32,074 nt of DNA from an uncultured Roseivirgaceae bacterium (GCA_964654735.1 CAZZML010000001.1:1-32074); one strand, 5' to 3'; counted from the first letter of the stretch, positions 10,591 through 30,847 are shown. Notes: generated by a model not told the origin, from the letters alone. Program-made: numbers and translations.

Positions 10591-10596
10591 ATTAAT

Positions 10597-11700: not shown

Positions 11701-11701
11701 T

Positions 11702-14090: not shown

Positions 14091-15265
14091 TGAGACAGTT
14101 AGAGCCCAATATCTTAAATGCTACTGTTAAAATTTGCACCAATTGCATTTACGATGAGCGTGTAAATGGGATTTCTTTCGATAATAACGGTGTTTGTAAT
14201 TACTGCCGGCAAATAAACTCGTTAATAGAGGAGTATGGAACTGGCGAGAAAAAAGGAGAGCATGTTTTTTTTAATCTAATAGAAAAGATTAAGAAAGATG
14301 GAAGAAATAAAAAGTATGATTGTGTAATAGGAGTAAGTGGAGGAACCGACTCTTCTTACATGCTTTACTTAGCAAAAAAGTGGAAATTAAGACCACTTGC
14401 AGTACACTATGATAATACTTGGAACAGCGCAATTGCCACAGAAAACATACGTAAAGTACTCGGTGCCCTAAATATTGATTTATATACTCATGTTGTAAAT
14501 AACATAGAGGTAGATGATATTTTTAAATCTTTTTTTAAAGCAAGTGTAGCAGAAATAGAAGCTTCAACAGATTTAGCTTTAGCCGAAACTTTGTATCGTG
14601 CAGCAGCTAAACATGGAGTAAAGTATGTGTTTGAGGGGCATTCGTTTGTAACGGAGGGTATAACTCCTGTTGGAAGGAACTACTTTGATGGGAAGTACAT
14701 AAGTTCAATTCATAAAAAATTTGGCACAACTAAAATAAAATCTTATCCATTAATGACGTTTAGTCGTTTTTTATATTGGACAATATTTAAAAGGATTCGA
14801 AAAATAAGACCATTTTGGTATTTAGATTACAATAAAGAAGCAGCTAGAGAGTTTTTAGAAAAAAATTATAACTGGAAGTATTATGGTGGGCATCATTTAG
14901 AAAATAGAATGACGGCATTTTACCATAGCTATTATATGCCAACTAAATTTAATTCAGATTTAAGGAATAATACATTATCTGCCAAAGCGCGGAACAAACA
15001 AATTTCTAGAAAGGATGCTTGGGCCGAGTATAACACAGAACCATTATTAGAAGATGGCTTATTAGATTATTTTAAAAAGAGATTAAAACTATCGGACGAA
15101 CAATTTATGGGTATAATGGCGCGACCTCCTAAGTCTTGGTATGAATACCCTACCTATAAAAAGCGATTTGAATTTTTACGCCCGCTATTTTTTGTGTTGG
15201 CAAAATCTAATTTGGTTCCTATGAGTTTCTACCTTAAGTATTGTTTCCCATCGGTTAAAAATTGA
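14090..15265 (+). CDS. N-acetyl sugar amidotransferase (WbuX/WbpG/LfnA type, PP-loop ATPase)
   Basis: N-terminal Cys-rich element (CTNCIYDERVNGISFDNNGVCNYCRQ) followed by the PP-loop GVSGGTDSSYMLYLA. It lies immediately upstream of hisH/hisF paralogs, which is the characteristic arrangement for this family. TAATGA stop/start junction. Confidence 0.85.
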   Translation: MRQLEPNILNATVKICTNCIYDERVNGISFDNNGVCNYCRQINSLIEEYGTGEKKGEHVFFNLIEKIKKDGRNKKYDCVIGVSGGTDSSYMLYLAKKWKLRPLAVHYDNTWNSAIATENIRKVLGALNIDLYTHVVNNIEVDDIFKSFFKASVAEIEASTDLALAETLYRAAAKHGVKYVFEGHSFVTEGITPVGRNYFDGKYISSIHKKFGTTKIKSYPLMTFSRFLYWTIFKRIRKIRPFWYLDYNKEAAREFLEKNYNWKYYGGHHLENRMTAFYHSYYMPTKFNSDLRNNTLSAKARNKQISRKDAWAEYNTEPLLEDGLLDYFKKRLKLSDEQFMGIMARPPKSWYEYPTYKKRFEFLRPLFFVLAKSNLVPMSFYLKYCFPSVKN

Positions 15266-15269
15266 GTAA

Positions 15270-15878
15270 ATGATAACAATTATAGACTATGGGGTGGGCA
15301 ATTTAGGTTCTGTTTATAATATGTTTAAAAGAATTGGAGTAAAATCAAAAATTACTTCGGATAGGGCTGAAATTGAAAATGCAACGAAGCTATTGCTTCC
15401 GGGCGTTGGTTCGTTTGATTATGCTATGAACAAGTTGAACTCGTCAGGTATTCGAAAAACGTTAGATGCAAAAGTACTGGAAGATAAAGTACCTGTTCTT
15501 GGAATTTGCCTTGGTATGCAGTTATTAACCCATGGAAGTGAAGAAGGAACAGAAAAAGGCTTGGGTTGGATAGAGGCAGACACCATCAAATTTATTCCTA
15601 CCGATAACACTGTAAAAGTACCCCATATGGGGTGGAATGTTGTGCAGCCCTCTACAGCAAGTGAATTAACCAGAAAACTTCCATTAGACTCTCGGTTCTA
15701 TTTTGTTCATTCATATTATGTAAAGGTAAAAAGTCAAGCAAATTCTATTTTAAAAACTAAGTATGCACTTGAATTTGATTCTGCCATACAGCACGATAAC
15801 ATATTTGGGGTTCAGTTTCACCCTGAGAAAAGCCATAAATATGGCATGAAACTCTTCGAAAATTTTTCTAAATTATAG
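15270..15878 (+). CDS. hisH: Imidazole-glycerol-phosphate-synthase-like glutaminase subunit (HisH paralog of LPS/capsule loci)
   Basis: ITIIDYGVGNLGSV start, catalytic Cys in GICLGMQLL, His/Glu in QFHPEKS. Length about 200 aa. Confidence 0.9.
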   Translation: MITIIDYGVGNLGSVYNMFKRIGVKSKITSDRAEIENATKLLLPGVGSFDYAMNKLNSSGIRKTLDAKVLEDKVPVLGICLGMQLLTHGSEEGTEKGLGWIEADTIKFIPTDNTVKVPHMGWNVVQPSTASELTRKLPLDSRFYFVHSYYVKVKSQANSILKTKYALEFDSAIQHDNIFGVQFHPEKSHKYGMKLFENFSKL

Positions 15879-15880
15879 CA

Positions 15881-16642
15881 TTGCTCCGAACCAGGGTTAT
15901 ACCGTGTTTACTACTAAGAGAAGATGCCTTGGTAAAAACTATAAAGTTTAAAAAATACAACTACATAGGTGATCCTGAAAATACCGTTCGAATTTTTAAT
16001 GAACTTGAAGTAGATGAACTGGTTTTTTTAGATATTTTAGCGAGCAAAACAAATCAAAAAATAAAGTTTAATACGCTTAAAAATATTGCGGCCGAAGCAT
16101 TTATGCCACTGGCGTATGGAGGTGGAATACGAACGTTTGAAGAGGCAAAAAAAATTCTTTCCATTGGGTATGAAAAGCTGATTATAAATTCAAGCGCAGT
16201 CGAAAGCCCTGAGTTTATTACTGAATTATCTATGCACTTTGGAAATCAGAGTATTATTGGGTCTATTGATGTAAAAAAGAATTTTTTTGGAAAGTATAAA
16301 GTTGTAACTCATGGTGCTTCAAAAAAAACAGGGTTAGACCCTGTAGAGTGGGCAGTAGAATTGGAAAAAAGGGGAGTAGGCGAATTGCTCATTACCTCGG
16401 TAGATAAAGAAGGAACCTGGAATGGATATGATGTGGAGTTAATCAAGCAGATTTCTAAACATGTTACCGTTCCAGTGGTGGCAAATGGAGGGGCTGCTAG
16501 TGTAGAGAACATTCAAGAGGTTGTCAAAGTTGGAGGAGCTTCAGCAGCTGCAGTGGGCAGCATGGTAGTTTATCAAAAAAAGGGGTACGGGGTATTGGTC
16601 AATTTTCCTGATAATTCGGAATTAGAAAAGTTATTGGAATGA
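15881..16642 (+). CDS. hisF: HisF-like cyclase subunit (HisF2/AglZ-type acetamidino modification protein)
   Basis: RVIPCLLL, DELVFLDI, YGGGIRTFEEAK, and VANGGAAS ... AAAVGSMVVY, all typical of the HisF (beta/alpha)8 barrel. The TTG start at 15881 is forced: an in-frame TAA at 15869-15871 precedes it and no ATG or GTG lies between. Confidence 0.9.
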   Translation: MLRTRVIPCLLLREDALVKTIKFKKYNYIGDPENTVRIFNELEVDELVFLDILASKTNQKIKFNTLKNIAAEAFMPLAYGGGIRTFEEAKKILSIGYEKLIINSSAVESPEFITELSMHFGNQSIIGSIDVKKNFFGKYKVVTHGASKKTGLDPVEWAVELEKRGVGELLITSVDKEGTWNGYDVELIKQISKHVTVPVVANGGAASVENIQEVVKVGGASAAAVGSMVVYQKKGYGVLVNFPDNSELEKLLE

Positions 16643-17352
16643 AAAAGCTTAAATGGACTTTTGATTATATAAAAGATGAATATCAAGTGCTAAAAAATAA
16701 CGGATACTCATTTATTACGTGTGAAGATTACTATTTGAAAAAATATAACTTGAAAAGCAAGACCGTTGTGAATAGGGTAGATATTGATTTTTCGTTAAAA
16801 AAAACGGATGTGCTATTAGATATTTTTGAAGAATTGGAGATCAAAGCATCATTTTTTTTAAGACTTCATGCTCCTGAATATAACCCGTTTTCTTTTGAAT
16901 CTTACCGAATTATAAAACGATTAATAGCAAACGGGCACGAGTTAGGCTACCATTCTGAAATAATAGACCAAGCCGTTATATGGAATGAAGAACCTGAAAA
17001 CTGTTTAATTCGTGATATACAAGTAATGGAAAAAGCGTTTGAAATTAGGGTGAAAGGTGTAGCCAGCCATGGAGGCAATACAGGTTTAAATAATTTAGAG
17101 TTTTGGAAAGACAAGAAGGCTTTGGATTATGGACTTTTGTATGAAGCCTATGACCATCAACCAGCATTTAATCTGTTTCAGGAAGCTTTTTATATTTCAG
17201 ATTCTGAATGGACACAATGGAAGTGTTATAATAAAGGAAAACTACTTGTAAATGATAGACGCTCACCGTCAGAACATTCTTTAAGCGGTCATAACCTAAT
17301 TCATTTATTAATTCATCCTGACACCTATTATAACCGGCATATTTATGAATAG
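16639..17352 (+). CDS. Polysaccharide-deacetylase-like (NodB/CE4-like) protein, divergent
   Basis: NRVDIDFSLKKTDVLLDIFEELEIKASFFL resembles CE4 motif 1 and the following strand. GHELGYHSE resembles the His motif. GVASHGG occurs downstream. The canonical TFDD and RxPY motifs are not evident, so this call is tentative. ATGA overlap with hisF. Confidence 0.4.
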   Translation: MKKLKWTFDYIKDEYQVLKNNGYSFITCEDYYLKKYNLKSKTVVNRVDIDFSLKKTDVLLDIFEELEIKASFFLRLHAPEYNPFSFESYRIIKRLIANGHELGYHSEIIDQAVIWNEEPENCLIRDIQVMEKAFEIRVKGVASHGGNTGLNNLEFWKDKKALDYGLLYEAYDHQPAFNLFQEAFYISDSEWTQWKCYNKGKLLVNDRRSPSEHSLSGHNLIHLLIHPDTYYNRHIYE

Positions 17353-18301
17353 TGTTTTGGGTAAAAAAGGTAAGTTTGATGAGGTCGATGAATTTATCTT
17401 TTTAAATGATTTAAATCAACACCTGATTGAATTTGACAGAAAATTATTAAGAAATAGCCTAACTGAGCAATACCCTAATGTTTTTTTATTCGGTCTTCCA
17501 CGGTCAGGCACAACTATGCTATCGCAGGTTTTATATAATAACCTAAATATTTCTACTTTTAATAACTTGGCAGCGCGTTTTTGGGATGCACCACTCGTAG
17601 GATTACATTTTTCTAACACAGTATTAAAAAAGGATAAAAAAGATAACTATACTTCAAATTTTGGCTCAACAATGGATATGAATTCACCCCATGAGTTTTC
17701 CTATTTTTGGAGAAAGCACTTGCTGGTAGATGAATTGCTAGAAAGCTTAGATGTGGCTAAAGTTGGCAATAGTATAAACTGGCAAAGGCTATTTAAATAT
17801 TTAATAAATTTTAATCATATAAATAGATCACCTTTTGTTTATAAAACAATGGAATATACGGGTTTATACATTGATTATTTTTTAAAATATTTTAGTAAGT
17901 CATATTTTATTTATATTCAAAGAGATTACTTATCTGTAGCTAAATCCATTTATAGTGCTTGGGTTTTAAATACAACAGGAAAGAACGATTGGTGGGGAAG
18001 TGCTCCTCTGGAGTATAGAAAGTTAATGGGTTTGCCATTGGTGGATAAAGTTGTTGGCCAGATGTACTACTTGGATAAAATGTATAAGATAGCTTTAAAT
18101 AAAATTCCGGACAATAGACTTATTAAGGTACAGTACACTGACTTGTGCCAACATCCTAATGATTTATTGATGAAAATTAATGACTTAATAAAAATCCCTG
18201 TTCTTTCTTCTCCATCTAGTTTTGAAATCTCAAATTCATCAGTTGATAAAAATATAGAGCAAAGGATTGTTGAACTGTTAAAAATATATAAATTATCATG
18301 A
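17345..18301 (+). CDS. Sulfotransferase-family protein (PAPS-dependent type)
   Basis: 5-prime-phosphosulfate-binding loop LPRSGTTMLSQVL and a 3-prime-phosphate-binding-like motif IQRDYLSVAKS (the R-D-x-x-x-x-x-x-S pattern). Length about 320 aa. It overlaps the upstream gene by 8 nt. Confidence 0.7.
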   Translation: MNSVLGKKGKFDEVDEFIFLNDLNQHLIEFDRKLLRNSLTEQYPNVFLFGLPRSGTTMLSQVLYNNLNISTFNNLAARFWDAPLVGLHFSNTVLKKDKKDNYTSNFGSTMDMNSPHEFSYFWRKHLLVDELLESLDVAKVGNSINWQRLFKYLINFNHINRSPFVYKTMEYTGLYIDYFLKYFSKSYFIYIQRDYLSVAKSIYSAWVLNTTGKNDWWGSAPLEYRKLMGLPLVDKVVGQMYYLDKMYKIALNKIPDNRLIKVQYTDLCQHPNDLLMKINDLIKIPVLSSPSSFEISNSSVDKNIEQRIVELLKIYKLS

Positions 18302-19014
18302 ATTATTTATATGCACTACACCAGCCTGACTTTATGCCTTGGTTAGGGTTTTTTGACAAAATGAACAAAGTTGATAACTATATAGTTTTTGATAATGTTT
18401 ATATAACCACAGGAAAATCTTGGTCAAATCGAGTTAAAATTTTACTAAATAATAAAGAGTATTGGCTTACAATTCCAATAAGTAGGTCAGGTATTAGTAA
18501 TAAACCAATATATGAAGTAGAATTAAATCAGCCGGAGAGAAATTTTTCCAAATTGTTAAAAACGATTCGACAGGCTTATTTGAAGCACCCCTTTTTTAAA
18601 GAGGTCTTTCCATTTATAGAAGAACTTAGGTTAGAAAGAGAACTCAGGTTATCAGAGGTTAATGCCAAATTTAACACTAAAATGTATGAAAAAATTTTTG
18701 GCCGAAGCAAAAACATACTTTTTGCCTCTGATGTGGCAGGTTTAAGAAACATAGATAAATTTAAAACAGATATGATTATTAAAGTATGCAATAATTTTGA
18801 TGTTGAAAACTATTTATCTGGTGAAGGATGTTTGAGTTTTTTAGAAACTGAACAATTTAGAGAAAATGGAATAAACATATCGTTTCAAAATTTTGAACCG
18901 CCAGTTTATCCTCAGTATAGGAATAATGAGTCATTTGTGTCAGGATTATCAATTATTGATGCCTTAATGAATATTGGTTTTGAAGGGACAAAACAATTAC
19001 TTGACAGGAAATAG
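18298..19014 (+). CDS. WbqC-like family protein (LPS/capsule-locus protein of unknown biochemical function)
   Basis: The N-terminus LHQPDFMPWLGFFDKMNKVDNYIVFDNV resembles the WbqC-family signature (QP-aromatic-aromatic-P-aromatic-x-G-aromatic-F). Length about 240 aa. ATGA overlap with the sulfotransferase. Confidence 0.65.
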   Translation: MNYLYALHQPDFMPWLGFFDKMNKVDNYIVFDNVYITTGKSWSNRVKILLNNKEYWLTIPISRSGISNKPIYEVELNQPERNFSKLLKTIRQAYLKHPFFKEVFPFIEELRLERELRLSEVNAKFNTKMYEKIFGRSKNILFASDVAGLRNIDKFKTDMIIKVCNNFDVENYLSGEGCLSFLETEQFRENGINISFQNFEPPVYPQYRNNESFVSGLSIIDALMNIGFEGTKQLLDRK

Positions 19015-19019
19015 GAATT

Positions 19020-20222
19020 GTGAGAGTAGGAATCTTAGGTAATATGAATAATAACCATTTTGCACTAATGCGTTATTTAAGAGATGAAGGTGTTGATGCT
19101 TACTTGCTATTATATCAAAATGAATTAGAGCATTTTCGACCCATTAACGATACTTTTAATATACATAAGTGGGAAAAATATATTGTTCAAACCGATTTGA
19201 GCTTTGGAGATTTCCCTGCTTTGAGAAGATATTTTTCACCTGCCAAAATTAAAAAATGGATAGATGATTTTGATTTTGTGATAGGCAATGGGTTTGCACC
19301 TGCCTATATGGTTGCATGCAAAAGAAAGCTAAACATATTTACCCCGGTTACAATCGGAGGCGAATACCTGAGAAATATGGCTTCTTTAAAAGGATTCAAA
19401 GATCGTGTTAAGCATGCTTTTCTTAAACACTTTCAAATAAAAGGGCTTAAAAACACAGATTATATATTCACAATTGATCAATCTCAAGAGAACTTATTTC
19501 ATTTTAAAAAAAATAAGTTAACTACCAAGCCTATTGGCATGCCTATGGTATATAACCAAGAAATACCCAGCGTAGAAAATATTAATAACAAACTTAGGCG
19601 TGTGATATCTGAAATGGGAAAAGCTCAAATCGTAATCTTTTCTCATTCACGGTTATTGTGGAAAACATTGCCAAAATTAGATGTAGATAAAAATTATAAA
19701 GGCAAAAGAAATGATATTCTAATTAAAGGGTTTGCTAACTATATTAATCATTCTAAGCAAAGAACAGCCCGTTTGTTTTTGCTTGAGTATGGTGTGGATG
19801 TTAAAGCCACCAAAGAGCTGATTAGTAAACTCAAAATAGATGAATATGTAACTTGGCTGCCCAAAATGAGTAGGAAAGAAATAATGATACTACTTGATTA
19901 TGTAGATATTGGTGCTAATGAATTTCATGGTAGAATGTGGGGAGGTACAGGTTGGGAGTTTTTGTCAAAAGGAGTTCCATTTTTCCATTATTTAGATATA
20001 TCAAAGGAAAGGTTTGAGACCATATACAATATGCCCATACCATTTATGTTCAACTCTAATAAAAGCGAGCAAATTTCAAAATACATATTAAATTTTGAAG
20101 CCAACCCAAAGAAGTATGAATATATAAGAGCCGACTTAAAAAAATGGTTTAATACCAATAATGGTGTTGAATTAGCAAAAAAATATAGTAAAGTAATTCG
20201 AAATTTTGAGGAGAAGCAATAG
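19020..20222 (+). CDS. Hypothetical protein with GT-B-like (two Rossmann domain) layout; possible divergent glycosyltransferase
   Basis: MRVGILG N-terminus. The C-terminal half has a GT1/GT4-like pattern (KGKRNDILIKGFANY ... RLFLLEYGVDVKATKELISKLKIDEYVTWLPKMSRKEIMILLDYVDIGANEF ... GWEFLSKGVPFF), but the canonical E-x7-E motif is absent. GTG start. Confidence 0.4.
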   Translation: MRVGILGNMNNNHFALMRYLRDEGVDAYLLLYQNELEHFRPINDTFNIHKWEKYIVQTDLSFGDFPALRRYFSPAKIKKWIDDFDFVIGNGFAPAYMVACKRKLNIFTPVTIGGEYLRNMASLKGFKDRVKHAFLKHFQIKGLKNTDYIFTIDQSQENLFHFKKNKLTTKPIGMPMVYNQEIPSVENINNKLRRVISEMGKAQIVIFSHSRLLWKTLPKLDVDKNYKGKRNDILIKGFANYINHSKQRTARLFLLEYGVDVKATKELISKLKIDEYVTWLPKMSRKEIMILLDYVDIGANEFHGRMWGGTGWEFLSKGVPFFHYLDISKERFETIYNMPIPFMFNSNKSEQISKYILNFEANPKKYEYIRADLKKWFNTNNGVELAKKYSKVIRNFEEKQ

Positions 20223-21695
20223 TTGTTACATAATGCACTAAAATTTTTAATAAAAGATACGGCTATTTATGGCATTGCTGGTGCGATTACTAAATTTATA
20301 GCCTTGTTTTCCGTTCCAATTGTAGCAAGAGTTTTAACAAAAGACGAGTTTGGAACTCTAAATACAATAATTGCCATTACCGTGGTATTTTCAGGGTTTA
20401 TAACACTAGGTCAAGATTCGTCCGTTGCAAGATGGTTCTTTGATAAAGATAAATCGGATAAAGAATACAAAGTAAAAGTTGTGAGTACTGGATTTTTGCT
20501 GCAGTTGACAGCTACAGTCATATTTGCCATAGTATTCTTTTTTTTTCACGGTAGAATTGGCACTCTAATTTTTAAAGAAGATTATAACTTAATACACTAC
20601 TGGGAGTATTATATTTTTGCGTTACCGGGAGGAGCTTTTTTGTTGTTTTCAAACAATGTTTTTAAATGGACATTTCAAAGAAACAAGTATTTGTTTTTAA
20701 CTCTGGGCAACTCAATATCAACAATTTTATTAACATTGGTATTTATTTTGGTTTATGATATGGGTATTTTCGGTGCCATTATCGCACCGGTTATCTCTGT
20801 TAACTTGTTTTCAGTCATTAGTTTAGTAATGAATAGAAACTATATTAAACTAACAAACAATTTTGATAAAGAGTTAATTATTCAGATGCTTAAATATGGA
20901 TTGCCTTTTTCATTAATTGCGATTGTTGCTGCTTTATTACCTTCTATGGATAGGCTTTTTTTAATTAGATATGTTAACATGGATGTTATTGGTGAATATT
21001 CTGTTAGCTTAAAAATTGCAAGTTTATTAATGCTAATCACAGGGGCATTTCAAATCTCATTTGGGCCATATGCCTATTCTATTTGGAAAAAACCTGAGGC
21101 ACCTAAAGTCTTAAGCGAACTTTTTACGATTTATTTAGGTGTACTGCTAGTAATTGGAACAACAATGACAGTTTTTGGAGAAATTGGAATCCAGCTTTTT
21201 GCTGGTGAGCAATATGTTAAATCTATTTTAGTACTGCCATTTATACTATTAGCTTACGCCATAAGAGGGTTAAACCAGTTTTCGACAATTGGAATAAACT
21301 GGTCAAAAAAATCATATTTTAATGTTTTTTCAATTTTAATACAACTTGCTGTGTTGCTAGTCTTTAATTTTTTGTTAACGGAAAAATTTAAAATTTTTGG
21401 AGCTGCAGGAGCCTTATTAATATCTAACCTAGTTTATGTAATATTTACCTTTATAATTTCGAATATGTATTACAAGATTAAAATAGATATTACAAAATCG
21501 CTAGTAATTATTAGCTTAGCAGTAACCGTACACTCTATAGTACTATTCGACTTCTATTATAATAGTTCCTTTCTAACAATTGCCAAGTTTGCAACTTTAA
21601 TAGTTTATTATTTTATTCTATATTTCATTATTTTAAATAGAGATCAACGATTAAGTGTGGCATTAAAGGTTCAATCAGTTATGAAGCTTAAATAG
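20223..21695 (+). CDS. wzx: Wzx-type oligosaccharide flippase (MOP superfamily polysaccharide biosynthesis protein)
   Basis: 490 aa with about 12-14 hydrophobic segments. The N-terminus LIKDTAIYGIAGAITKFIALFSVPIVARVLTKDEFG is typical of Wzx. The TTG start comes directly after the TAG of the preceding gene, and no in-frame ATG is nearby. Confidence 0.8.
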   Translation: MLHNALKFLIKDTAIYGIAGAITKFIALFSVPIVARVLTKDEFGTLNTIIAITVVFSGFITLGQDSSVARWFFDKDKSDKEYKVKVVSTGFLLQLTATVIFAIVFFFFHGRIGTLIFKEDYNLIHYWEYYIFALPGGAFLLFSNNVFKWTFQRNKYLFLTLGNSISTILLTLVFILVYDMGIFGAIIAPVISVNLFSVISLVMNRNYIKLTNNFDKELIIQMLKYGLPFSLIAIVAALLPSMDRLFLIRYVNMDVIGEYSVSLKIASLLMLITGAFQISFGPYAYSIWKKPEAPKVLSELFTIYLGVLLVIGTTMTVFGEIGIQLFAGEQYVKSILVLPFILLAYAIRGLNQFSTIGINWSKKSYFNVFSILIQLAVLLVFNFLLTEKFKIFGAAGALLISNLVYVIFTFIISNMYYKIKIDITKSLVIISLAVTVHSIVLFDFYYNSSFLTIAKFATLIVYYFILYFIILNRDQRLSVALKVQSVMKLK

Positions 21696-21742
21696 TACAT
21701 GACATGGTAGGCAAACTAATATTTTTCTAGTACGTTGAGTTA

Positions 21743-23095
21743 ATGAAAGTTATAATTCTAGTTTTAAATTTACTAACCCTAGGAATAATCATAGCCTTAA
21801 GGCCAGATTTCTCTTTGCTATCTTCTGTTCCTTTTTTTTATGTCATACTATTGGCTATAAGTTGGATTGTTTCTAAAAATGGCGAATTTGGAAAAACTAT
21901 TAAGCTGGTCTTGCTGATTTTGCCTTTTTACCTGTTCTATTCATTTATTACCTATTGGGATATACAAGGATTGGATGGTTTTTTTTATTCAGATGAAACT
22001 TATTTTTATCCCACTTTAAGTAGTTTGGCTAGCGAAAAATCAATTGCTGCCATTTGGCAAAAAACGATTATCACACATTCTCACAGAGATTATGAAGGTT
22101 TTTTTTTAATTCATGGTTCAATAGCTTATTTGGCTCAAAAGTACTTTGAAGGAAACTCCATTGTTTTGCAAAGTATATGGGTGGCTTTTTTTGGAGTGCT
22201 TACTAACTTATTTATATATAAGCTGTTCAGGTTTTATTTTTATGAGAATAAAGCTTTTAACCTTACACTTATTTTCGCTTTATTTACCCCTTTTGTATTT
22301 TATATGCCTTGGATATTGCGGGATATTCACATTGTACTTCTTTATTCAATCGCATTGTATTTTGTACATAAAAATACCTCCTTATTAAATATTGTTATTT
22401 TATTAATTATAAGTTTTATAACCATCGAATTTAGGTTTGAAAACGGGTTGTTACTATTAATTTTCCCTGTCCTCAATACTTTTATTAATAGTGACTACCA
22501 ACAAAATGTAAAAAAATATTTTCCCACAATTTTATCATTTTCTGTACTAATCGTTTATTATGCGGTTACTATTGAAGAGCAAAACGTAATAACTTCAATT
22601 GATAAAATTGCTGTTTATAGTGAGTTTACAGACGAAAGTTTGAATGACGGGTTGGGAGCTAAATTATATGGCTTGCCTATTGGTATAAAGCAGTTGGCCA
22701 TTGTTGTTAATTCGCAATTTACTCCCATGCCCCCTTGGTTTCTGCTTAGAGAATATAAAGGGTTTATCATAGGTTCTTTAATTATGCTAATAAATACTTC
22801 TTTTTGGTCGATACTAATTTTGATTGGTTTGCTTTTAACTACAAAAAAGAAAATTTTAAAAAAAATGCCAACTTCACTCAAGTATGTCGCATTATTTGGT
22901 GTACTTGTTTTATTTGTTAATTCACCTAATTTAACTATTCGTAGAGTGTTATGCATTTATCCCGTTTTTTATCTTTGGGTAGTTTATATGATCAGTTTGT
23001 TATCCAACACCTATTTAAAACAGCTAAGATATAAGTCAACAATAATCTATTGTGGTATGCTTATCTTTTATGTTATACTAAAAAATATTGTGTGA
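21743..23095 (+). CDS. Polytopic membrane protein; candidate Wzy-type repeat-unit polymerase
   Basis: 450 aa, at least 10 hydrophobic segments, very low G+C, located right after wzx. I see no recognisable catalytic motif, so the assignment rests on position and topology only. Confidence 0.45.
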   Translation: MKVIILVLNLLTLGIIIALRPDFSLLSSVPFFYVILLAISWIVSKNGEFGKTIKLVLLILPFYLFYSFITYWDIQGLDGFFYSDETYFYPTLSSLASEKSIAAIWQKTIITHSHRDYEGFFLIHGSIAYLAQKYFEGNSIVLQSIWVAFFGVLTNLFIYKLFRFYFYENKAFNLTLIFALFTPFVFYMPWILRDIHIVLLYSIALYFVHKNTSLLNIVILLIISFITIEFRFENGLLLLIFPVLNTFINSDYQQNVKKYFPTILSFSVLIVYYAVTIEEQNVITSIDKIAVYSEFTDESLNDGLGAKLYGLPIGIKQLAIVVNSQFTPMPPWFLLREYKGFIIGSLIMLINTSFWSILILIGLLLTTKKKILKKMPTSLKYVALFGVLVLFVNSPNLTIRRVLCIYPVFYLWVVYMISLLSNTYLKQLRYKSTIIYCGMLIFYVILKNIV

Positions 23096-23109
23096 CTAGT
23101 TAAGAAATA

Positions 23110-23856
23110 TTGAATCAATTAAAAATGTTAAGTATGAATTTTTATGATATAGTTGCAAGTAATGGATTTTATTCTAAGTCAAGTCGACTTAAGTTTTATC
23201 TGGAAAATCAACTTTTTAAAGGGATTGACTTTAAAAATAAATCGGTTATTGATATAGGTGGAGGAAATGGACTTTTTGGATTTTATGCTGCAGTTAATGG
23301 AGCTTCCAAAGTTGTTGTAATGGAACCCGAATTTGAAGGTAGTTCGGCTGATATGATAAAAGAGTTCGGTGAAATTAATAATTTACTTGGAAGCTTGGGT
23401 AATATTACACACACAGCAGATGTGTTGGAAGATTATGATAGGGCAAACAACCAGTTTGATTATATACTGATGCATAACTCCATTAATCATATTGATGAAA
23501 AAGCATGCATCATACTTAAAGAGAATAAGGAAGCTCAACTAAAATATCTAAAATTCTTTAAATTACTTAAGGAAATATCAGTTTCAGGAACAAGTCTAAT
23601 AGTACATGATTGTACGAGCAAAAATTTTTTTAATGACATAGGTATGAAATCACCTTTTGCTAAATCAATTGAATGGGAAAAGCATCAGCATCCCAAAGTT
23701 TGGGCGAAACTCTTAGCGGAAGCTGGATTTACCACTAAATCTATTAAGTGGACTACCTTCAATGCCTTAAAGGCTTTTGGCCAGATTATCATGGGTAATA
23801 GGTTTTTTTCATATTTTACTAATAGTGTTTTCTTACTTAAAATGGAAAAGCTTTAA
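23110..23856 (+). CDS. Class I SAM-dependent methyltransferase
   Basis: Motif I VIDIGGGNGLFGFYAA, acidic post-I residue (VVVMEPE), motif II-like DYILMHNSINHI. The track start is TTG, and in-frame ATGs at 23125 and 23134 are alternatives. Confidence 0.75.
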   Translation: MNQLKMLSMNFYDIVASNGFYSKSSRLKFYLENQLFKGIDFKNKSVIDIGGGNGLFGFYAAVNGASKVVVMEPEFEGSSADMIKEFGEINNLLGSLGNITHTADVLEDYDRANNQFDYILMHNSINHIDEKACIILKENKEAQLKYLKFFKLLKEISVSGTSLIVHDCTSKNFFNDIGMKSPFAKSIEWEKHQHPKVWAKLLAEAGFTTKSIKWTTFNALKAFGQIIMGNRFFSYFTNSVFLLKMEKL

Positions 23857-23863
23857 ACACTAA

Positions 23864-24967
23864 TTGGTGAAAATTTTGTTGGTTATAGATAGCCTCGGGT
23901 CAGGTGGAGCACAAAACCAACTAACCCTATTGGCTCTTGCATTAAAAAGCAGAGGGCATAATGTAGTTGTATTTTTGTATTATGATAAGCCTTTTTTTAA
24001 ACCTAGACTTGAACAGGGTAATATAACTTGTGTGTTATCTAAAAAAACAAACAAAATTGGGCTAGGAGTTGTACAAAACCTTGTTGGTTTAGTAAACAAA
24101 AATAAGTTTGACGGTATTATTTCCTTTTTAGATACCCCCAACTTTTACTCTTGTTTGGCACTAGTGTTTTCAAAACATAAGCCAAAATTGATCATTTCTT
24201 ATCGCAGTAAAACCGATTTTACAAATATGTCTTGGTTTACCAAAAAGCGAAAAGAATGGGTAAATAATAGAGCTGACCATATTGTTACTAACTCTCATCA
24301 TGAAAGAAAGAGATGGCAACAATCATATCCTAATCAAGCAGAAAAATGGAAAACCATTTATAATGTTGTAGATACTAAAAAATTTAAACCCAATACTTTT
24401 TCTAAAAGATCAGAGTCGTTTTTAGTTGTAGGCAGTGTTGGCCCGGCAAAAAATGGCTTGCTATTAATTGAAGCTTTAAATGAGCTAAAAAAAAGAGAGA
24501 TTATAGTTTATATAACTTGGGTTGGACAAAAGGCAAAGGATATTAAAGAAAGAAGAGACTACATTGAACTGATGGAAAGTAAAATTAGTGAGTATGGCCT
24601 ATCAAATCAGTGGGCATGGCAGGAGCCAACTCACACCATTCAAAAAGAGTATAGCTCATACAAAGCACTAATTTTAGCTTCATTAACAGAAGGCTTACCC
24701 AATGTTGTGTGTGAGGCACTTTGTAGTGGGTTGCCTTGCATTATTAGTAATGTATTGGATCACCCCAACCTTATTAAAAATAATGAATCCGGTTTTCTTT
24801 TTGACCCAATGAGTAGCAGAGAGTTATGTGAGGCAATAATTAGCATAATTTCTTTACCTGAAAGAAACTATGCTGAAATGCAACTTAGGGTAAGAGAAAA
24901 AGGGTTAAAATTATTTAATCAATCGTCATTTTTGGAGTATGAAAAATTATTAAGTTGTTCATGTTGA
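23864..24967 (+). CDS. Glycosyltransferase family 4 (GT-B, retaining type)
   Basis: KILLVIDSLGSGGAQ N-terminus. E-x7-E motif in TEGLPNVVCEALCSGLPCIISNV. The start is TTG 23864 or, more likely, GTG 23867. Confidence 0.85.
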   Translation: MVKILLVIDSLGSGGAQNQLTLLALALKSRGHNVVVFLYYDKPFFKPRLEQGNITCVLSKKTNKIGLGVVQNLVGLVNKNKFDGIISFLDTPNFYSCLALVFSKHKPKLIISYRSKTDFTNMSWFTKKRKEWVNNRADHIVTNSHHERKRWQQSYPNQAEKWKTIYNVVDTKKFKPNTFSKRSESFLVVGSVGPAKNGLLLIEALNELKKREIIVYITWVGQKAKDIKERRDYIELMESKISEYGLSNQWAWQEPTHTIQKEYSSYKALILASLTEGLPNVVCEALCSGLPCIISNVLDHPNLIKNNESGFLFDPMSSRELCEAIISIISLPERNYAEMQLRVREKGLKLFNQSSFLEYEKLLSCSC

Positions 24968-25509
24968 AAGCTATAGGTCTTTTTTTGGTTTTTGTTGTTA
25001 GAGTTATAAAGAGGTTGTTAATGTATTGTTACAGGCCACTTTTTAAGAAACATGGAAGAAATTTTATTTTTGATTCGTTTAGTCATTTTTCTTACAAAAA
25101 TATAGAAGTAGGTAATGACGTTTTTATTGGGTCAGGAGCCCGATTTTCTGCCACTATATCTTATATTAAAATTGGTAATAAGGTTATGTTTGGGCCAGAT
25201 GTTAGCATAAGGGGGGGCGATCATAATGCATCAACAATAGGAGAGTATATGTATGATGTAAAAAGTAAACTTCCTGAAAATGATTTACCTGTGATTATAG
25301 AAAATGATGTTTGGATAGGAACCAGATCAATAATTCTTAAAGGAGTTACCATTGGAACAGGTAGCATTGTTGCAGCAGGAGCATTGGTTATTAAAAATGT
25401 ACCTGCGTATAGTATTGTGGGAGGAGTGCCTGCAAAAGTGATAAAGAAGAGATTTACAGAAGAAAAATTATTAGAGCACATTCAATTGTTAAAGGCTCAA
25501 AAAGTTTAG
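24955..25509 (+). CDS. Hexapeptide-repeat O-acetyltransferase (LacA/WcaF-like) with N-terminal hydrophobic segment
   Basis: IGNDVFIGSGARF, IGNKVMFGPDVSIRGGDH, IENDVWIGTRSIILKGVTIGTGSIVAAGALV, VGGVPAKVIKKRF. N-terminal segment AIGLFLVFVVRVI. The probable ATG start is at 24961. Confidence 0.8.
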   Translation: MFMLKAIGLFLVFVVRVIKRLLMYCYRPLFKKHGRNFIFDSFSHFSYKNIEVGNDVFIGSGARFSATISYIKIGNKVMFGPDVSIRGGDHNASTIGEYMYDVKSKLPENDLPVIIENDVWIGTRSIILKGVTIGTGSIVAAGALVIKNVPAYSIVGGVPAKVIKKRFTEEKLLEHIQLLKAQKV

Positions 25510-26603
25510 TGATTAAGAAGAATGTGATTTTTATTGGTTCGTTTAAAAGCAACACGGGTGATGGTGGTACTGGTGGGCAGCTATTTGCTTGCACTTCATT
25601 AATAGAATCGGATTTAAAAAATCATGCTAACTTCCTTCTTATAGATACTACTGCTATATCAATTCCTGCACCTCCTGTTTATAAACGATTTTTTAATGTA
25701 TTTAAGAGACAATTGCAATTATATAAATTACTCCTATTTTATAGGGTTGATACCGTGATTGCTTTTTCGAGTGCCGGTCTTAGTTTCATAGAAAAAGGGT
25801 TTATGCTGTTGGTATCTAAATTATTTAGAAAAAGAACAATTTTTGCTCCCAGGTCAGGAATTACTAAAGCAGATTACGCCAATTCTAAAATTTATCGTAG
25901 CTTAATCCCTTTTATTATAAAAAATGTAGATATAGTTATTTGCCAAAACATGAAATGGAAATTGTTTTATCAAGGAATTAACCCCCTTAATAATAATGAA
26001 TTCAAGGTTATTAAAAACTGGATTAATTTAGAGAAATATGAAGAGCTACCAACTCACTTTGATCAATCAGCTATTGTTAATCTTTTATATTTAGGATGGA
26101 TTGAGACCTACAAAGGAATTTTTGATTTATTGGATGCTGCTCATCTCTTACGAAGTAAGCAGGTACAGTTCAATCTTAAAATTTTTGGATCAGGTAGTGA
26201 GATGACAAATGTAAACGCTACGATAACTCGATTGGGTTTAGAGGATTCCGTTCAAACTTTGGGGTGGGCTAATTTCAATAAAAAAATTGAGGCTTTTAAT
26301 TGGACGGATATTTATGTGCAACCCTCGCATATGGAAGGTTCACCCAATACAATTCTTGAATCTATGGCACTCGGAAAGCCGGTAATTGGAACTAATATAG
26401 ATGGAGTTATCGAATTATTAGATAATGGTGTAGGTATGATTGTGGAAAAAGAAAACCCCCAAAGCTTAGCAGATGGGCTTATAAGCTTGATTAGAGATAG
26501 CTCACTACAGAAAGAACTTAGGCTTAAAGGTTTAAAGAGAGTTAAGCAGAACCACAGTATAGAAGTTGCAGTATCTAATTGGAAACAAATACTTAATAAT
26601 TAG
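25509..26603 (+). CDS. Glycosyltransferase family 4
   Basis: E-x7-E motif in MEGSPNTILESMALGKPVIGTNIDG, with a preceding C-domain pattern (YLGWIETYKGIFDLLDAA ... KIFGSG). The GTG start shares one base with the upstream TAG (taGTG). Confidence 0.85.
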   Translation: MIKKNVIFIGSFKSNTGDGGTGGQLFACTSLIESDLKNHANFLLIDTTAISIPAPPVYKRFFNVFKRQLQLYKLLLFYRVDTVIAFSSAGLSFIEKGFMLLVSKLFRKRTIFAPRSGITKADYANSKIYRSLIPFIIKNVDIVICQNMKWKLFYQGINPLNNNEFKVIKNWINLEKYEELPTHFDQSAIVNLLYLGWIETYKGIFDLLDAAHLLRSKQVQFNLKIFGSGSEMTNVNATITRLGLEDSVQTLGWANFNKKIEAFNWTDIYVQPSHMEGSPNTILESMALGKPVIGTNIDGVIELLDNGVGMIVEKENPQSLADGLISLIRDSSLQKELRLKGLKRVKQNHSIEVAVSNWKQILNN

Positions 26604-26635
26604 GTCACTATATGTAGATAAAATAATTGAAATAA

Positions 26636-28777
26636 ATGAAACAAATCCTCCAATCCTTTAAAACAGGCCAAACTATACTGGAAGAAATTCCTGAACCGAT
26701 GGTATCAGGCAAAAAGGTACTTATCCGAACATCTAAGAGCTTGATTTCTTTAGGTACCGAACGAATGTTGGTAGGTTTTGGAAAGGCAAGTTATTTAGAA
26801 AAAGCACGCCAGCAACCTGATAAGGTAAAAATGGTGCTGGATAAGGTAAAAACAGATGGTTTAATGCTTACCATTGCCTCTGTAAAGAATAAGCTTGACC
26901 AACCAATTCCTTTAGGTTATAGTAATGTTGGTGTGGTTAATGCTATTGGAAATTCTGTAGCTAAATTTAAAATAGGAGATAGGGTGGTATCAAATGGTGC
27001 CCACGCAGAGGTAGTCTCAATTGGTGAAAACCTGATGGCTAAAATTCCGGACAATGTAACCGATGAAGAAGCTACCTTTACTGTAATCGGAGCAATTGCT
27101 TTGCAGGGAATTCGATTGGCCAACCCTACCTTTGGTGAAACCATTGTTGTACAGGGCTTAGGCTTAATTGGTTTAATAGCTTGCCAGTTATTAAAAGCCA
27201 ATGGCTGCAAGGTAATTGGAATTGATCCCGATAAATCGAAATGCGACCTTGCTTCAGGGTTTGGAGTACAATCCATTCACTTAGGAAAAGGCTCTCCTGT
27301 TGAAAAAATACTGACATCAACAAATAATGTAGGTGTAGATGCTGTACTAATTACGGCCTCGGCTTCAACAGATGAAATTGTATCACAAGCAGCTCAAATG
27401 AGCCGAAAACGAGGGCGAATAGTATTAGTAGGTGTAGTTGGTTTAAAGCTAAATAGGGCTGAATTTTATGAAAAAGAGCTGTCATTTCAAGTATCTTGTT
27501 CGTATGGGCCGGGCAGGTATGATAACCGGTATGAGGGGCAAGGAATAGACTACCCTATTGGTTTTGTTCGATGGACAGAACAACGAAATTTTGAAGCTGT
27601 TTTAGAAGCTATGCGCACAGGAACCTTGGATGTTAAGCCATTAATTACTCAGAAAGTGCCTTTTGAGAAAGTAGTAGAGGTGTATGATACCATTGAAGGA
27701 TCATCTTCTATTGCTACTATTATTGAGTATCCTATTTCAAAAGTGGAAAAATGTAATACAATTCGACTAAATAATGCAAAATTTGAGAAATCTGATGGAG
27801 TAATTGGCTTAATTGGAGCAGGTAATTTTGCTAAAATGACCATGTTGCCTGTATTAAAAAAAACAGGAGCACAAATGAAATACATTGCTTCTTCGGGTGG
27901 TGTTTCGGGTACCCATTTAGCTAAAAAATTTGGTATAGCTCATTCAACTACCGATTATTCAACCATTTTAAAAGATAAAGATGTAAAGCTGGTAATCATA
28001 ACAACCCAGCATAATATGCATGCTTCAATGGTTACCAAAGTGCTTAAATCGAAAAAGCATGTGTTTGTAGAAAAACCTTTGGCTATTAATGAAGAGCAAC
28101 TCAATAATATACATAAGGTTATGGGAGATTCAGAAGGACTTACATTAACCGTTGGATTCAATAGAAGATTTTCGCCATCAATTCAGAAAATAAAAAGTTT
28201 GGTGGGAGAAAATCCTGACACTATGAACATTACCGCTACTATGAATGCAGGTGCAATTCCTCAAAATTCGTGGGTGCAGGATATGGAGCGAGGAGGAGGA
28301 AGAATTATTGGCGAAGCCTGTCATTTTATTGACTTGATGGTGTATATAACAGGGAGTAAGGTAGCATCTGTTTGTATGAATGCAATGGGATTAGATGCTA
28401 CATCAAGTACAGATAATGCCAGCATTTTATTAAAATTTGAAAATGGCTCCAATGGAGTAATTAATTATTTCTCTAACGGCAGTAAAAGTTACGCTAAAGA
28501 GCGTGTTGAAGTTTATCAAGAAGGAAAAACGTTAGTGATGGACAATTTCAGAGTGCTCAAAGGTTACGGATATAAAGGATTTAATAAGTTAACAACTAAG
28601 CAAGATAAAGGTCATAATAAGCAGTTTGAACTGCTTATTAAATCTTTAGAAAATGGAGGGCAACCCTTGATTCCTTATAATGAAATTTACAACGTCTCCA
28701 AAGCGAGTATCTTAGCTGTGGAATCTCTTAAAATTGGAGCTTGGGTTAGTTTAACAATGGACAGATTGCTTCCCTAA
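26636..28777 (+). CDS. Bi-domain oxidoreductase: N-terminal MDR/zinc-type alcohol-dehydrogenase-like domain fused to a C-terminal Gfo/Idh/MocA domain
   Basis: N-terminal half: GYSNVGVV, GDRVVSNGAHAE, and Rossmann VQGLGLIGLIACQLLKANGCKVIGID. C-terminal half: IGLIGAGNFAKMTMLPVLKK, VFVEKPLAI (EKP motif), FNRRFSP. The final codons (MDRLLP-stop) lie inside repeat copy 1. Confidence 0.85.
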   Translation: MKQILQSFKTGQTILEEIPEPMVSGKKVLIRTSKSLISLGTERMLVGFGKASYLEKARQQPDKVKMVLDKVKTDGLMLTIASVKNKLDQPIPLGYSNVGVVNAIGNSVAKFKIGDRVVSNGAHAEVVSIGENLMAKIPDNVTDEEATFTVIGAIALQGIRLANPTFGETIVVQGLGLIGLIACQLLKANGCKVIGIDPDKSKCDLASGFGVQSIHLGKGSPVEKILTSTNNVGVDAVLITASASTDEIVSQAAQMSRKRGRIVLVGVVGLKLNRAEFYEKELSFQVSCSYGPGRYDNRYEGQGIDYPIGFVRWTEQRNFEAVLEAMRTGTLDVKPLITQKVPFEKVVEVYDTIEGSSSIATIIEYPISKVEKCNTIRLNNAKFEKSDGVIGLIGAGNFAKMTMLPVLKKTGAQMKYIASSGGVSGTHLAKKFGIAHSTTDYSTILKDKDVKLVIITTQHNMHASMVTKVLKSKKHVFVEKPLAINEEQLNNIHKVMGDSEGLTLTVGFNRRFSPSIQKIKSLVGENPDTMNITATMNAGAIPQNSWVQDMERGGGRIIGEACHFIDLMVYITGSKVASVCMNAMGLDATSSTDNASILLKFENGSNGVINYFSNGSKSYAKERVEVYQEGKTLVMDNFRVLKGYGYKGFNKLTTKQDKGHNKQFELLIKSLENGGQPLIPYNEIYNVSKASILAVESLKIGAWVSLTMDRLLP

Positions 28778-28790
28778 GTTCGCAATAACG
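28751..28790. repeat. Intergenic repeat family, copy 1 (overlaps the last 9 codons and the stop of the oxidoreductase gene)
   Basis: ttaacaatggacAGATTGCTTCCCTAAGTTCGCAATAACG. It matches copy 3 at 33 of 40 positions, aligned by eye. The core contains ATTGC ... GCAAT inverted 5-mers. Confidence 0.8.
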
Positions 28791-28797
28791 TTCCATT

Positions 28798-28836
28798 CCG
28801 CCATCATGAAGCCCCACATCTACCGCCATCACGAGG
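28798..28836. repeat. Pair of 14-nt direct repeats CCGCCATCAYGARG
   Basis: CCGCCATCATGAAG at 28798-28811 and CCGCCATCACGAGG at 28823-28836. They are 12 of 14 identical, and both differences are transitions. Confidence 0.7.
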
Positions 28837-28872
28837 GAAGTATGACCGAAGTGATCTGATCTTAGAAAACTA

Positions 28873-28907
28873 AATGAACAGGTTACTTCGCTGCGCTCGT
28901 AATGACG
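28873..28907. repeat. Intergenic repeat family, copy 2 (most diverged)
   Basis: aatgaacAGGTTACTTCGCTGCGCTCGTAATGACG. The 28-nt core matches copies 1 and 3 at 20 of 28 positions each. The inverted 5-mers change in a compensatory way (GTTAC ... GTAAT). Confidence 0.65.
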
Positions 28908-28947
28908 TTAATAATGGAGAGATTGCCTCACTACGTTCGCAATGACA
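28908..28947. repeat. Intergenic repeat family, copy 3
   Basis: ttaataatggagAGATTGCCTCACTACGTTCGCAATGACA, in the same orientation as copies 1 and 2. Confidence 0.8.
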
Positions 28948-28969
28948 ATAACAGTTCATAACATTTTCA

Positions 28970-30847
28970 ATGCTTAAAAAACTAACCACCTACCTAAAAA
29001 TTACCCAACAAATGGGCATAAGGTATATGGCGTTTCGGGTTTCGTATGAACTAAAAAAGAAAACAGGGTTATTCAAAAAGAAATTTCCCATACGAATTTC
29101 TGATATTTCTGTCCCATCTTTACCAGAATGGCACAAGAATCAAACACCATTTTTTCAATGGAATTTTGATAAATTTCCTGAGTTAGATAGAGATGATATA
29201 ACAAAGCTATCTAAACGAGTTGATAATTTAAAGAAAGGAAAAATAGAACTCTTTGGAGGAAAGACATATTCAACTCCTTTAAATGAATGGCATATAAACC
29301 CATTAACCGGGTATGAGTATAGTAAAATAACGCATTGGAGCAAAATTCCAGAATTTACCAAAGAAGCAGGCGACATAAAATACGTATGGGAAAAAGCAAG
29401 GTTTAGCTGGGTATATAGTTTTATTCGTTATGATAAACACGCAAGTCAGGACTCTTCAAAATTTATTTTCGATTCAATTGAATCATTTATTGACCAAAAC
29501 CCTATTAACCAAGGCCCCAATTACATCTGTAGCCAGGAAATATCTTTACGCATATTAAACTGGGTGTTTGCCTTGTATTATTACAAACATTCAGAAGCAT
29601 TGGATGAAGGCAAGTTTCATAAAATTTTGACTTCCATTAATGCGCAGATAGATCATGTGTATTCAAATATAAATTTTTCACGGATAGCTGTTCGTAATAA
29701 CCATGCCCTAACAGAAACCCTAACGCTATACCTGACAGGCCTTTTATTTCCATTTTTCCCCAATGCTAAAAAATGGAAAACAGAAGGAAAAAAATGGTTT
29801 GAAAAAGAGATAGAGTATCAAATTTATGATGATGGTTCGTACTTGCAATATTCTATGAACTACCACCGGGTAGTAGTGCAACTACTCACCTGGGCTTTTA
29901 CACTAGCTAAAAATAGTGGAGAAGAGTTTAACCCCGTAGTTTACGAAAAAGCAAAGAAAAGTGTAACCTTCTTAGAAGGGTGCCAAGATACTGTTTCCGG
30001 ACAGTTGCCTCATTATGGATCCAATGATGGAGCCTTGTTTTTTCCATTAAATAATTTAGAATATCGCAATTACACTCCTCAATTAAATGCGTTAAAGTCG
30101 AGCTTAAATATTCCTGTATCTGCTAAAAACGATTTGTTTGAAGATTGTTTTTGGTACGGGCTTATTACTGAAATTGCTAAAGATGAAATTGCTGATAAAA
30201 GTACCTCTTTCCAATTTAAAGTGGGTGGGTACTATGTATGGAAAGAGCCGGATTCTCTCACTTTTTTGAGGTGTGGTTCACACAAAAACCGGCCTTCTCA
30301 AGCGGATAATTTACACCTCGATTTATGGGTAAATGGCCTAAACATTTTACGAGATAGTGGAACTTACCTCTATAATGGTTCTACAGATGAAGTGGCTTAT
30401 TATAATAGTACCAGAGCACATAATACTGTTCAGGTAGGTGACGAAGACCAAATGAGGAGAGGAGATAGGTTTATTTGGTTTAATTGGTCAAAAGCAGTTA
30501 AAGTAGTAATAGAAGAAACTGATGATTTTTGGCAATTTAAAGGAACTATTTTGGCATTTGATAATTTAGAATTGTTGCGCAGTGTAAAGAAATATAAAAA
30601 CCAGATGGTTTGGGAGATAGAAGATGAGATTCACAATAAACCCAAGGATAAACTAATGCATCAACATTGGCATCCTAATGCTACTAATATGTTCATTACT
30701 TGTAAAAATGAGATAGGCAGTAAAATCAAAGCAATTGAGACACATGGATGGCTTGCACCTAATTATGGCAAGTCAATTACTTCACCCATACTAACATTTA
30801 CTACTCAAGGGAGTTTTTTATCTACACGAATAGAAGTTACCGGCTAG
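28970..30847 (+). CDS. Heparinase II/III-like family protein (alginate-lyase-like alpha-toroid plus heparinase II/III beta-sandwich), no signal peptide
   Basis: NHALTETLTLYLTG in the central region. C-terminal SHKNRPSQADNLHLDLWVNG and RAHNTVQV resemble the heparinase II/III domain signature. The N-terminus MLKKLTTYLKITQQMGIRYMAFRVSYELKKK is neither a signal peptide nor a lipobox. Confidence 0.8.
   Translation: MLKKLTTYLKITQQMGIRYMAFRVSYELKKKTGLFKKKFPIRISDISVPSLPEWHKNQTPFFQWNFDKFPELDRDDITKLSKRVDNLKKGKIELFGGKTYSTPLNEWHINPLTGYEYSKITHWSKIPEFTKEAGDIKYVWEKARFSWVYSFIRYDKHASQDSSKFIFDSIESFIDQNPINQGPNYICSQEISLRILNWVFALYYYKHSEALDEGKFHKILTSINAQIDHVYSNINFSRIAVRNNHALTETLTLYLTGLLFPFFPNAKKWKTEGKKWFEKEIEYQIYDDGSYLQYSMNYHRVVVQLLTWAFTLAKNSGEEFNPVVYEKAKKSVTFLEGCQDTVSGQLPHYGSNDGALFFPLNNLEYRNYTPQLNALKSSLNIPVSAKNDLFEDCFWYGLITEIAKDEIADKSTSFQFKVGGYYVWKEPDSLTFLRCGSHKNRPSQADNLHLDLWVNGLNILRDSGTYLYNGSTDEVAYYNSTRAHNTVQVGDEDQMRRGDRFIWFNWSKAVKVVIEETDDFWQFKGTILAFDNLELLRSVKKYKNQMVWEIEDEIHNKPKDKLMHQHWHPNATNMFITCKNEIGSKIKAIETHGWLAPNYGKSITSPILTFTTQGSFLSTRIEVTG

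Follow-up and report, generated by a model that had tools for sequence, protein, structure and literature searches.

Deacetylase-like, sulfotransferase and heparinase-fold genes in a surface-polysaccharide operon of an uncultured Roseivirgaceae bacterium are members of two separately inherited modules

The stretch of DNA analysed here (hereafter the window; 32,074 nucleotides, CAZZML010000001.1:1-32074) is a whole 32-kb contig from the fragmented metagenome-assembled genome (MAG) of an uncultured Roseivirgaceae bacterium of the phylum Bacteroidota (GCA_964654735.1; 703 contigs, 88% complete), and it carries a co-oriented surface-polysaccharide operon of the Bacteroidota Wzx/Wzy type, which spans position 2959 to the contig end. 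Three genes of this operon, encoding a deacetylase-like protein of carbohydrate esterase family 4 (CE4), a sulfotransferase dependent on 3'-phosphoadenosine 5'-phosphosulfate (PAPS) and a heparinase II/III-fold protein, had been proposed in an earlier reading, made from the sequence alone, to resemble a maturation toolkit for glycosaminoglycans (GAGs). We found that the three genes are members of two independently conserved and separately inherited modules with different fixed partners. Taken as a whole, it is probable that the operon has been assembled from independent precursor modules, two of which hold these genes: module A (approximately 9613-20222), with the deacetylase-like and sulfotransferase genes, and module B (26636-32073 and beyond), with the heparinase-like gene.

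The surroundings of the heparinase-like gene were compared in 80 loci from GTDB genomes, each with a homologue 44-49% identical to that of the window. The bi-domain oxidoreductase gene found in the window flanks the homologue in 53 of these loci, in the same order and with 51-64% identity, and a WbuB-like gene of glycosyltransferase family 4 (GT4) follows it directly in 61 (46-56% identity). None of the 80 loci contained a homologue of the deacetylase, the sulfotransferase or WbqC within 10-kb flanks. The neighbours of the heparinase homologue were biosynthetic in all 80, with the degradative context of a polysaccharide utilization locus in none. In a sample of 400 other genomes from the phylum, the heparinase family occurred in 27, the sulfotransferase family in 20 and a relative of the deacetylase in five; neither of the latter two was found in any genome that has the heparinase family.

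The deacetylase-like gene keeps a different company. In most of 76 metagenome loci, WbuX, HisH and HisF genes lie directly 5' of its homologue, frequently preceded by the same set of short-chain dehydrogenase/reductase (SDR), aminotransferase, AsnB and acetyltransferase genes as in the window (up to 84% identity), with WbqC and the orphan orf400 following; the three products in the window match NCBIfam models (WbuX, 219.5 bits, cut-off 203; HisH, 237 bits; AglZ/HisF2, 345.6 bits, cut-off 310), and WbqC was present in 23 of 72 deacetylase loci. The position immediately 3' of the deacetylase homologue, extracted in 61 loci, is variable. It is occupied by an N-acyltransferase gene in 32 of them, namely an LpxD-family gene of about 300 codons in 28, all scoring above the cut-off of the NCBIfam subfamily, and a PseH-like GNAT gene in four; WbqC takes the place in eight loci, DegT in six and a sulfotransferase of the window's family in three, and the remaining occupants are singletons, for example a FabG-like reductase and a MaoC hydratase. 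The order of deacetylase then sulfotransferase was observed outside the window in loci L103, L109 and L155 and, truncated, in L112, and no LpxD-like gene was found in the sulfotransferase-bearing loci. The CE4-like family downstream of WbuX-HisH-HisF is widespread but unnamed, and the decorating enzyme encoded after it is exchangeable. Module A as a unit is found repeatedly in metagenomes of marine origin, from Tara among other sources (loci L088-L164).

The sequence-only reading had placed a deacetylase-like and a sulfotransferase gene at 16639-18301 and a cytoplasmic heparinase II/III-fold protein further downstream, and all three genes are indeed there, on the + strand. Neither a leader sequence nor a membrane segment was detected in any of the three proteins. 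In the Wzx/Wzy pathway, polymerisation takes place after flipping; being cytoplasmic, the three proteins could therefore have nucleotide sugars or lipid-linked repeat units as their only substrates, and not the finished polymer.

The deacetylase-like protein does not reach the cut-off of Pfam Polysacc_deac_1 (20.6 bits against 23.1), but its family profile matches solved CE4 enzymes in PDB (E 6e-6), and its AlphaFold model (predicted local distance difference test, pLDDT, 93.6) retrieved only CE4 structures among the top 15 Foldseek matches (probability 1.0; template modelling, TM, score 0.40-0.56), led by 2vyo, PplD and IcaB (TM 0.45-0.5). It has more than 1180 relatives, many of them 63-76% identical. 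All of 34 relatives compared keep D48, D50, R75, E101, H105, E107, H144 and D188, and at least 90% keep H226, located at the end of the last strand where the catalytic-acid His of motif 5 (MT5, LxH) is expected; the acidic and His residues at motif positions are kept in this family down to 25-30% identity. Such conservation makes an active hydrolase likely. The protein shares with the NodB-fold CE4 esterases (PgdA, IcaB, PgaB, ArnD) the fold and the Asp, His and C-terminal His at MT1, MT2 and MT5. In contrast to the canonical members, however, it is small, cytoplasmic and tied to WbuX-HisH-HisF instead of to an exported polymer, has D-x-D for D-D in MT1, lacks the Arg-Pro-Tyr of MT3, and of the metal-binding positions retains D48, D50 and H105 with the second His of MT2 (HxxxH) replaced, the invariant E107 being one residue away. 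We consider it a divergent member of CE4 and a probable cytoplasmic de-N-acetylase of an amino-sugar precursor.

The next gene encodes a genuine PAPS sulfotransferase. It exceeds the Pfam cut-offs for Sulfotransfer_3 (48.4 bits against 27) and Sulfotransfer_1 (25 against 22), and the motifs that bind PAPS do not vary among 21 relatives, with GLPRSGTT (G50, P52, R53, G55, T56 and T57) as the 5'-phosphosulfate-binding motif (5'-PSB) and R193 and S201 as the 3'-phosphate-binding pair (3'-PB). A sequence search against PDB gave chance matches only, and the relationship was seen by fold search: the model (pLDDT 89.6) had 42 PDB matches with E<=1e-3, all sulfotransferases among the matches listed. 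The closest structures were the O-sulfotransferases Stf9, Stf1, TPST and 3-OST, with the N-sulfotransferase domain of the animal N-deacetylase/N-sulfotransferase (NDST) ranking 38th. The family is small, only 26 relatives having been found by a near-length search. PAPS can be made by this organism, because genes for the adenosine 5'-phosphosulfate kinase CysC (211 bits) and for CysD (438 bits, cut-off 397) adjoin on another contig (C26) of the same genome. Contig C7 carries another Sulfotransfer_3 gene (76 bits; C7:17449-18036) near a homologue of hexapeptide acyltransferases (C7:15828-16166), and this region may be a second sulfated-glycan locus.

For module A, which comprises the SDR, aminotransferase, AsnB, acetyltransferase and WbuX-HisH-HisF genes, the CE4-like gene, the variable gene, WbqC and orf400, we infer a role in tailoring an amino sugar in the cytoplasm. 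Most likely, the CE4-like enzyme would remove an N-acetyl group and the product of the next gene would re-decorate the sugar. In the window, the sugar would be sulfated, on either the freed amine or a hydroxyl. In its simplest form, this is a logic like that of LpxC and LpxD in lipid A synthesis, with loss of an N-acetyl group followed by addition of another group, which in the window would be sulfate.

A narrower alternative is that the two enzymes form an NDST-like pair working on the precursor, in which an amine freed by the CE4-like enzyme on a nucleotide sugar would be N-sulfated by the sulfotransferase, giving a sulfamate instead of the usual N-acyl group, with the heparinase cassette being independent. 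This is possible, and we rate it as somewhat unlikely. It would agree with the replacement of N-acyltransferases by the sulfotransferase directly after the deacetylase gene, with the absence of LpxD-like genes from such loci, with the 8-nt overlap of the two genes (17345-17352) and with the recurrence of their order in the four loci named above. However, the nearest structures are O-sulfotransferases, far ahead of the NDST domain; relatives of the sulfotransferase also occur in loci without a deacetylase gene, beside GT4, Bac_transf, FemAB-like, DegT or WbqC genes; in 14 of the 61 loci, WbqC or DegT, and no acyltransferase, directly follows the deacetylase; and N-sulfation is not mentioned in the papers found on sulfated bacterial capsules.

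The heparinase-like protein contains both Pfam domains (Hepar_II_III_N and Hepar_II_III_C) above cut-off (84 and 67.6 bits) and matches solved heparinase III structures (E 5e-13). Across 21 relatives, there is no variation at N243, N244, H245, Y298 or R300, and H299, H449 and H484 are conserved in at least 90%; alignment with heparinase III (5JMD) places these residues at its NH and YH motifs. The protein is probably a uronate C5 epimerase (or an elimination enzyme) that acts on a precursor, before polymerisation. Halobacterium Agl32 was considered as a prokaryotic precedent for a C5 epimerase of heparinase fold and was rejected, as the paper describing it places Agl32 in the AGE superfamily. 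Literature searches that paired heparinase with WbuB, or N-acetyl-L-galactosaminuronic acid (L-GalNAcA) with heparinase, gave no match.

Searching plasmid records by tblastn led to the megaplasmid of Ralstonia solanacearum, in which the heparinase homologue belongs to the eps operon for exopolysaccharide I (EPS-I), where wecB and wecC precede it and PglC/D/E-like genes follow. This biosynthetic operon shares with the window an oxidoreductase combining a medium-chain dehydrogenase/reductase (MDR) domain with a Gfo-type domain (51% identity over 684 aa), then a leaderless Hepar_II_III_N/C protein (28% over 424 aa) and then a GT4 enzyme (29% over 420 aa). The Ralstonia oxidoreductase ORF (L168:9603-11654, CP076416.1) is missing from the PLSDB gene table, where it falls in an unlisted 2-kb gap, so that surveys based on annotation would miss the partner of the heparinase gene. 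N-acylated galactosamine, a 2-deoxy-galacturonic acid and bacillosamine make up EPS-I (PMC12846841, PMC3759889). In Acinetobacter, gnlA and gnlB (WeeE and WeeF of the RAG-1 emulsan cluster) are adjacent and have been postulated to act in the synthesis of UDP-L-GalNAcA, GnlB having a heparinase fold (PMC9676051, bioRxiv 10.64898/2026.07.20.739706). In addition, zbdP-hepP of Pseudomonas aeruginosa PA14 shows, by published description, the same two architectures, a bi-domain dehydrogenase beside a two-domain heparinase protein. The cassette of the window differs in coming from a Bacteroidota MAG, and the Acinetobacter and Pseudomonas pairs are likened to it by published description. The heparinase cassette is of a known, recurrent kind and may serve as a route to a rare L-sugar acid. 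The genome of the window also has homologues of wecB and wecC, 54% identical to their Ralstonia eps counterparts, in stretches of about 1.1-1.3 kb on the small contigs C702 and C658, and these contigs may represent the missing continuation of the locus past the contig end.

For module B, we infer that uridine diphosphate (UDP)-D-ManNAcA (where ManNAcA stands for N-acetylmannosaminuronic acid), or a close relative, would most likely be converted into an N-acetyl-hexuronic acid with L-configuration, of the L-GalNAcA type. The supply of UDP-ManNAcA is the role of wecB and wecC. The lyase-fold protein would abstract and return the C5 proton next to the carboxylate, the two dehydrogenase domains would invert C3 by oxidation and reduction via a keto intermediate, and the WbuB-like GT4 enzyme would transfer the resulting L-sugar acid. 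L-GalNAcA is the 3,5-epimer of D-ManNAcA, a relationship that suggests this division of labour at C5 and C3 between the lyase-fold protein and the dehydrogenase domains. The uronic acid of EPS-I is reportedly L-configured. The product of the operon is likely to be an acidic, sulfated heteropolymer in which an L-hexuronic acid occurs together with amino sugars that are heavily N-modified.

Alternatively, the heparinase-like protein could be a true lyase that cleaves or trims a uronate glycan, for example in the turnover of a lipid-linked intermediate or, after release, in the degradation of host GAGs. Lyase-type catalytic residues are conserved in its family, and a plate assay of recombinant P. 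aeruginosa HepP reportedly showed breakdown of heparin (PMC5732420). However, the window protein has no export signal, as was also noted for HepP, its gene is linked to dehydrogenase and GT4 genes in biosynthetic operons, with no degradative locus among the 80, and a homologue stands in the Ralstonia eps operon, the product of which contains an amino sugar of the galacturonic acid type. We regard a lyase role as improbable.

That all three enzymes jointly mature one chain into a sulfated, C5-epimerised GAG-like capsule, as the sequence-only reading had proposed, is very improbable: the three activity classes, each plausible by itself, do stand in one co-oriented and tightly packed operon, uronic-acid precursors are made in the locus, PAPS can be synthesised and the animal C5-epimerase has a heparinase II fold, but joint maturation is unsupported because the genes belong to separate modules with different conserved partners, are not inherited together in the 400 other genomes of the phylum, encode cytoplasmic enzymes that would not reach the finished polymer of a Wzx/Wzy system, and are accompanied by no heparosan- or chondroitin-type synthase detected among the five glycosyltransferase candidates of the window (four GT4 enzymes and orf400), while the sugar of module A appears to be aminotransferase-derived and acetamidino-bearing rather than GlcNAc (N-acetylglucosamine) of the heparosan type.

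Several points weigh against the reading of the operon as an assembly of independent precursor modules that act as proposed. The flanks covered in the locus-level co-occurrence tests are shorter than the 11.6 kb that separates the genes in the window; the whole-genome cross-tabulation, the sole test spanning that distance, was added for this reason. The loss of the second metal-binding His of canonical CE4 enzymes means that the chemistry of the CE4-like protein may differ. The sulfotransferase loci without a deacetylase gene count here as well. In two of them (L191, 8001-9646; L192, 7995-9667), from genomes without a CE4-like gene, WbqC lies directly 3' of the sulfotransferase relative, so that the sulfotransferase may have its more constant partner in WbqC, for which no PDB relative was found and an Atlas search gave no match. 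The activity reported for HepP suggests that lyase activity is possible for the heparinase-like protein, and what links the cassette to L-GalNAcA is the structures of two polysaccharides together with a published postulate.

The layout of the operon is given in Table 1. The genes of the central part are closely packed, with overlaps of 4 nt at 16639-16642 and at 18298-18301 in addition to that between the deacetylase-like and sulfotransferase genes, and the amino-sugar and uronic-acid chemistry that had been ascribed to the locus is borne out by the WbpE/D/B-like genes, AsnB and WbuX-HisH-HisF. At the 5' border, a gene of the penicillin amidase family (661 bits; 451-2880, - strand) is divergent from the UpxY-like regulator. 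The operon's distal half has a single sizeable intergenic gap (28778-28969; 192 nt), which precedes the heparinase-like gene. A promoter and terminator scan of 16000-31500, this gap included, gave matches at chance level only, with a consensus that does not cover Bacteroidota promoters.

Table 1. Genes of the surface-polysaccharide operon in the window, listed in order of transcription
Feature	Coordinates or position	Strand	Basis
UpxY/NusG-like, Wza, Wzc	first genes of operon	+	
WbpE/WbpD/WbpB-like trio	after Wzc	+	
SDR, second DegT aminotransferase, AsnB, hexapeptide acetyltransferase	after WbpE/D/B-like trio, before WbuX	+	
WbuX (N-acetyl sugar amidotransferase) with its own HisH and HisF; acetamidino-forming trio	14090..16642	+	NCBIfam
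CE4-like (NodB-fold) hydrolase, 237 aa	16639..17352	+	family profile, fold search
PAPS-dependent sulfotransferase, 318 aa	17345..18301	+	Pfam, motifs, fold
WbqC-family protein	18298..19014	+	Pfam WbqC, 192.9 bits
orf400, 400-aa orphan	after WbqC	+	weak VpsD-family match only
Wzx, polytopic Wzy candidate, methyltransferase, two GT4 genes, another hexapeptide transferase	between orf400 and bi-domain oxidoreductase	+	
Bi-domain oxidoreductase: N-terminal MDR/alcohol dehydrogenase (ADH)-type and C-terminal Gfo/Idh/MocA domain	26636..28777	+	Pfam; PDB matches for both halves
Leaderless heparinase II/III-fold protein, 625 aa	28970..30847	+	Pfam, PDB
WbuB/WcaI-like GT4 glycosyltransferase, cut by contig end	30847..32073	+	NCBIfam WcaI, 122.7 bits, below cut-off 276

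The new point lies in module A, in that in a few marine Bacteroidota a sulfotransferase stands in the place of an N-acyltransferase after the CE4-like gene. To our knowledge, no N-sulfated sugar has been described in a bacterial surface polysaccharide. Should the sulfate be placed on the freed amine, the product would become the first N-sulfated glycan from a bacterium and the locus would supply a soluble enzyme pair for chemo-enzymatic N-sulfation; should it be placed on a hydroxyl, the locus would represent one more sulfated marine capsule.

Among known systems, animal NDST, the C5-epimerase Glce and the sulfotransferases of heparan sulfate cover the same activity classes as the three genes, namely a deacetylase, a PAPS sulfotransferase and a lyase/epimerase-fold protein probably acting at uronate C5. 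The animal enzymes, however, are interdependent and modify the completed chain in the Golgi, whereas those of the window are cytoplasmic, belong to separate modules, are not co-inherited and have no heparosan-type synthase detected beside them. Sulfotransferases in marine capsule loci are already known: the capsule clusters of Vibrio sp. KMM 8419 and Cobetia marina KMM 1449 likewise have a sulfotransferase within the polysaccharide locus and PAPS genes of the cysC/cysD type in the genome. In the paper on the Vibrio strain, sulfation of rhamnose is proposed and N-sulfation is not mentioned, whereas the sulfotransferase gene of the window is translationally coupled to a deacetylase-like gene. 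A parallel to the variable slot is provided by LpxC and LpxD, in which de-N-acetylation is followed by N-acylation, as in the 28 of 61 loci with an LpxD-family gene directly after the CE4-like gene; the deacetylase here, however, has the CE4 fold and not that of LpxC, and in the window it is a sulfotransferase that sits in the place of the acyltransferase.

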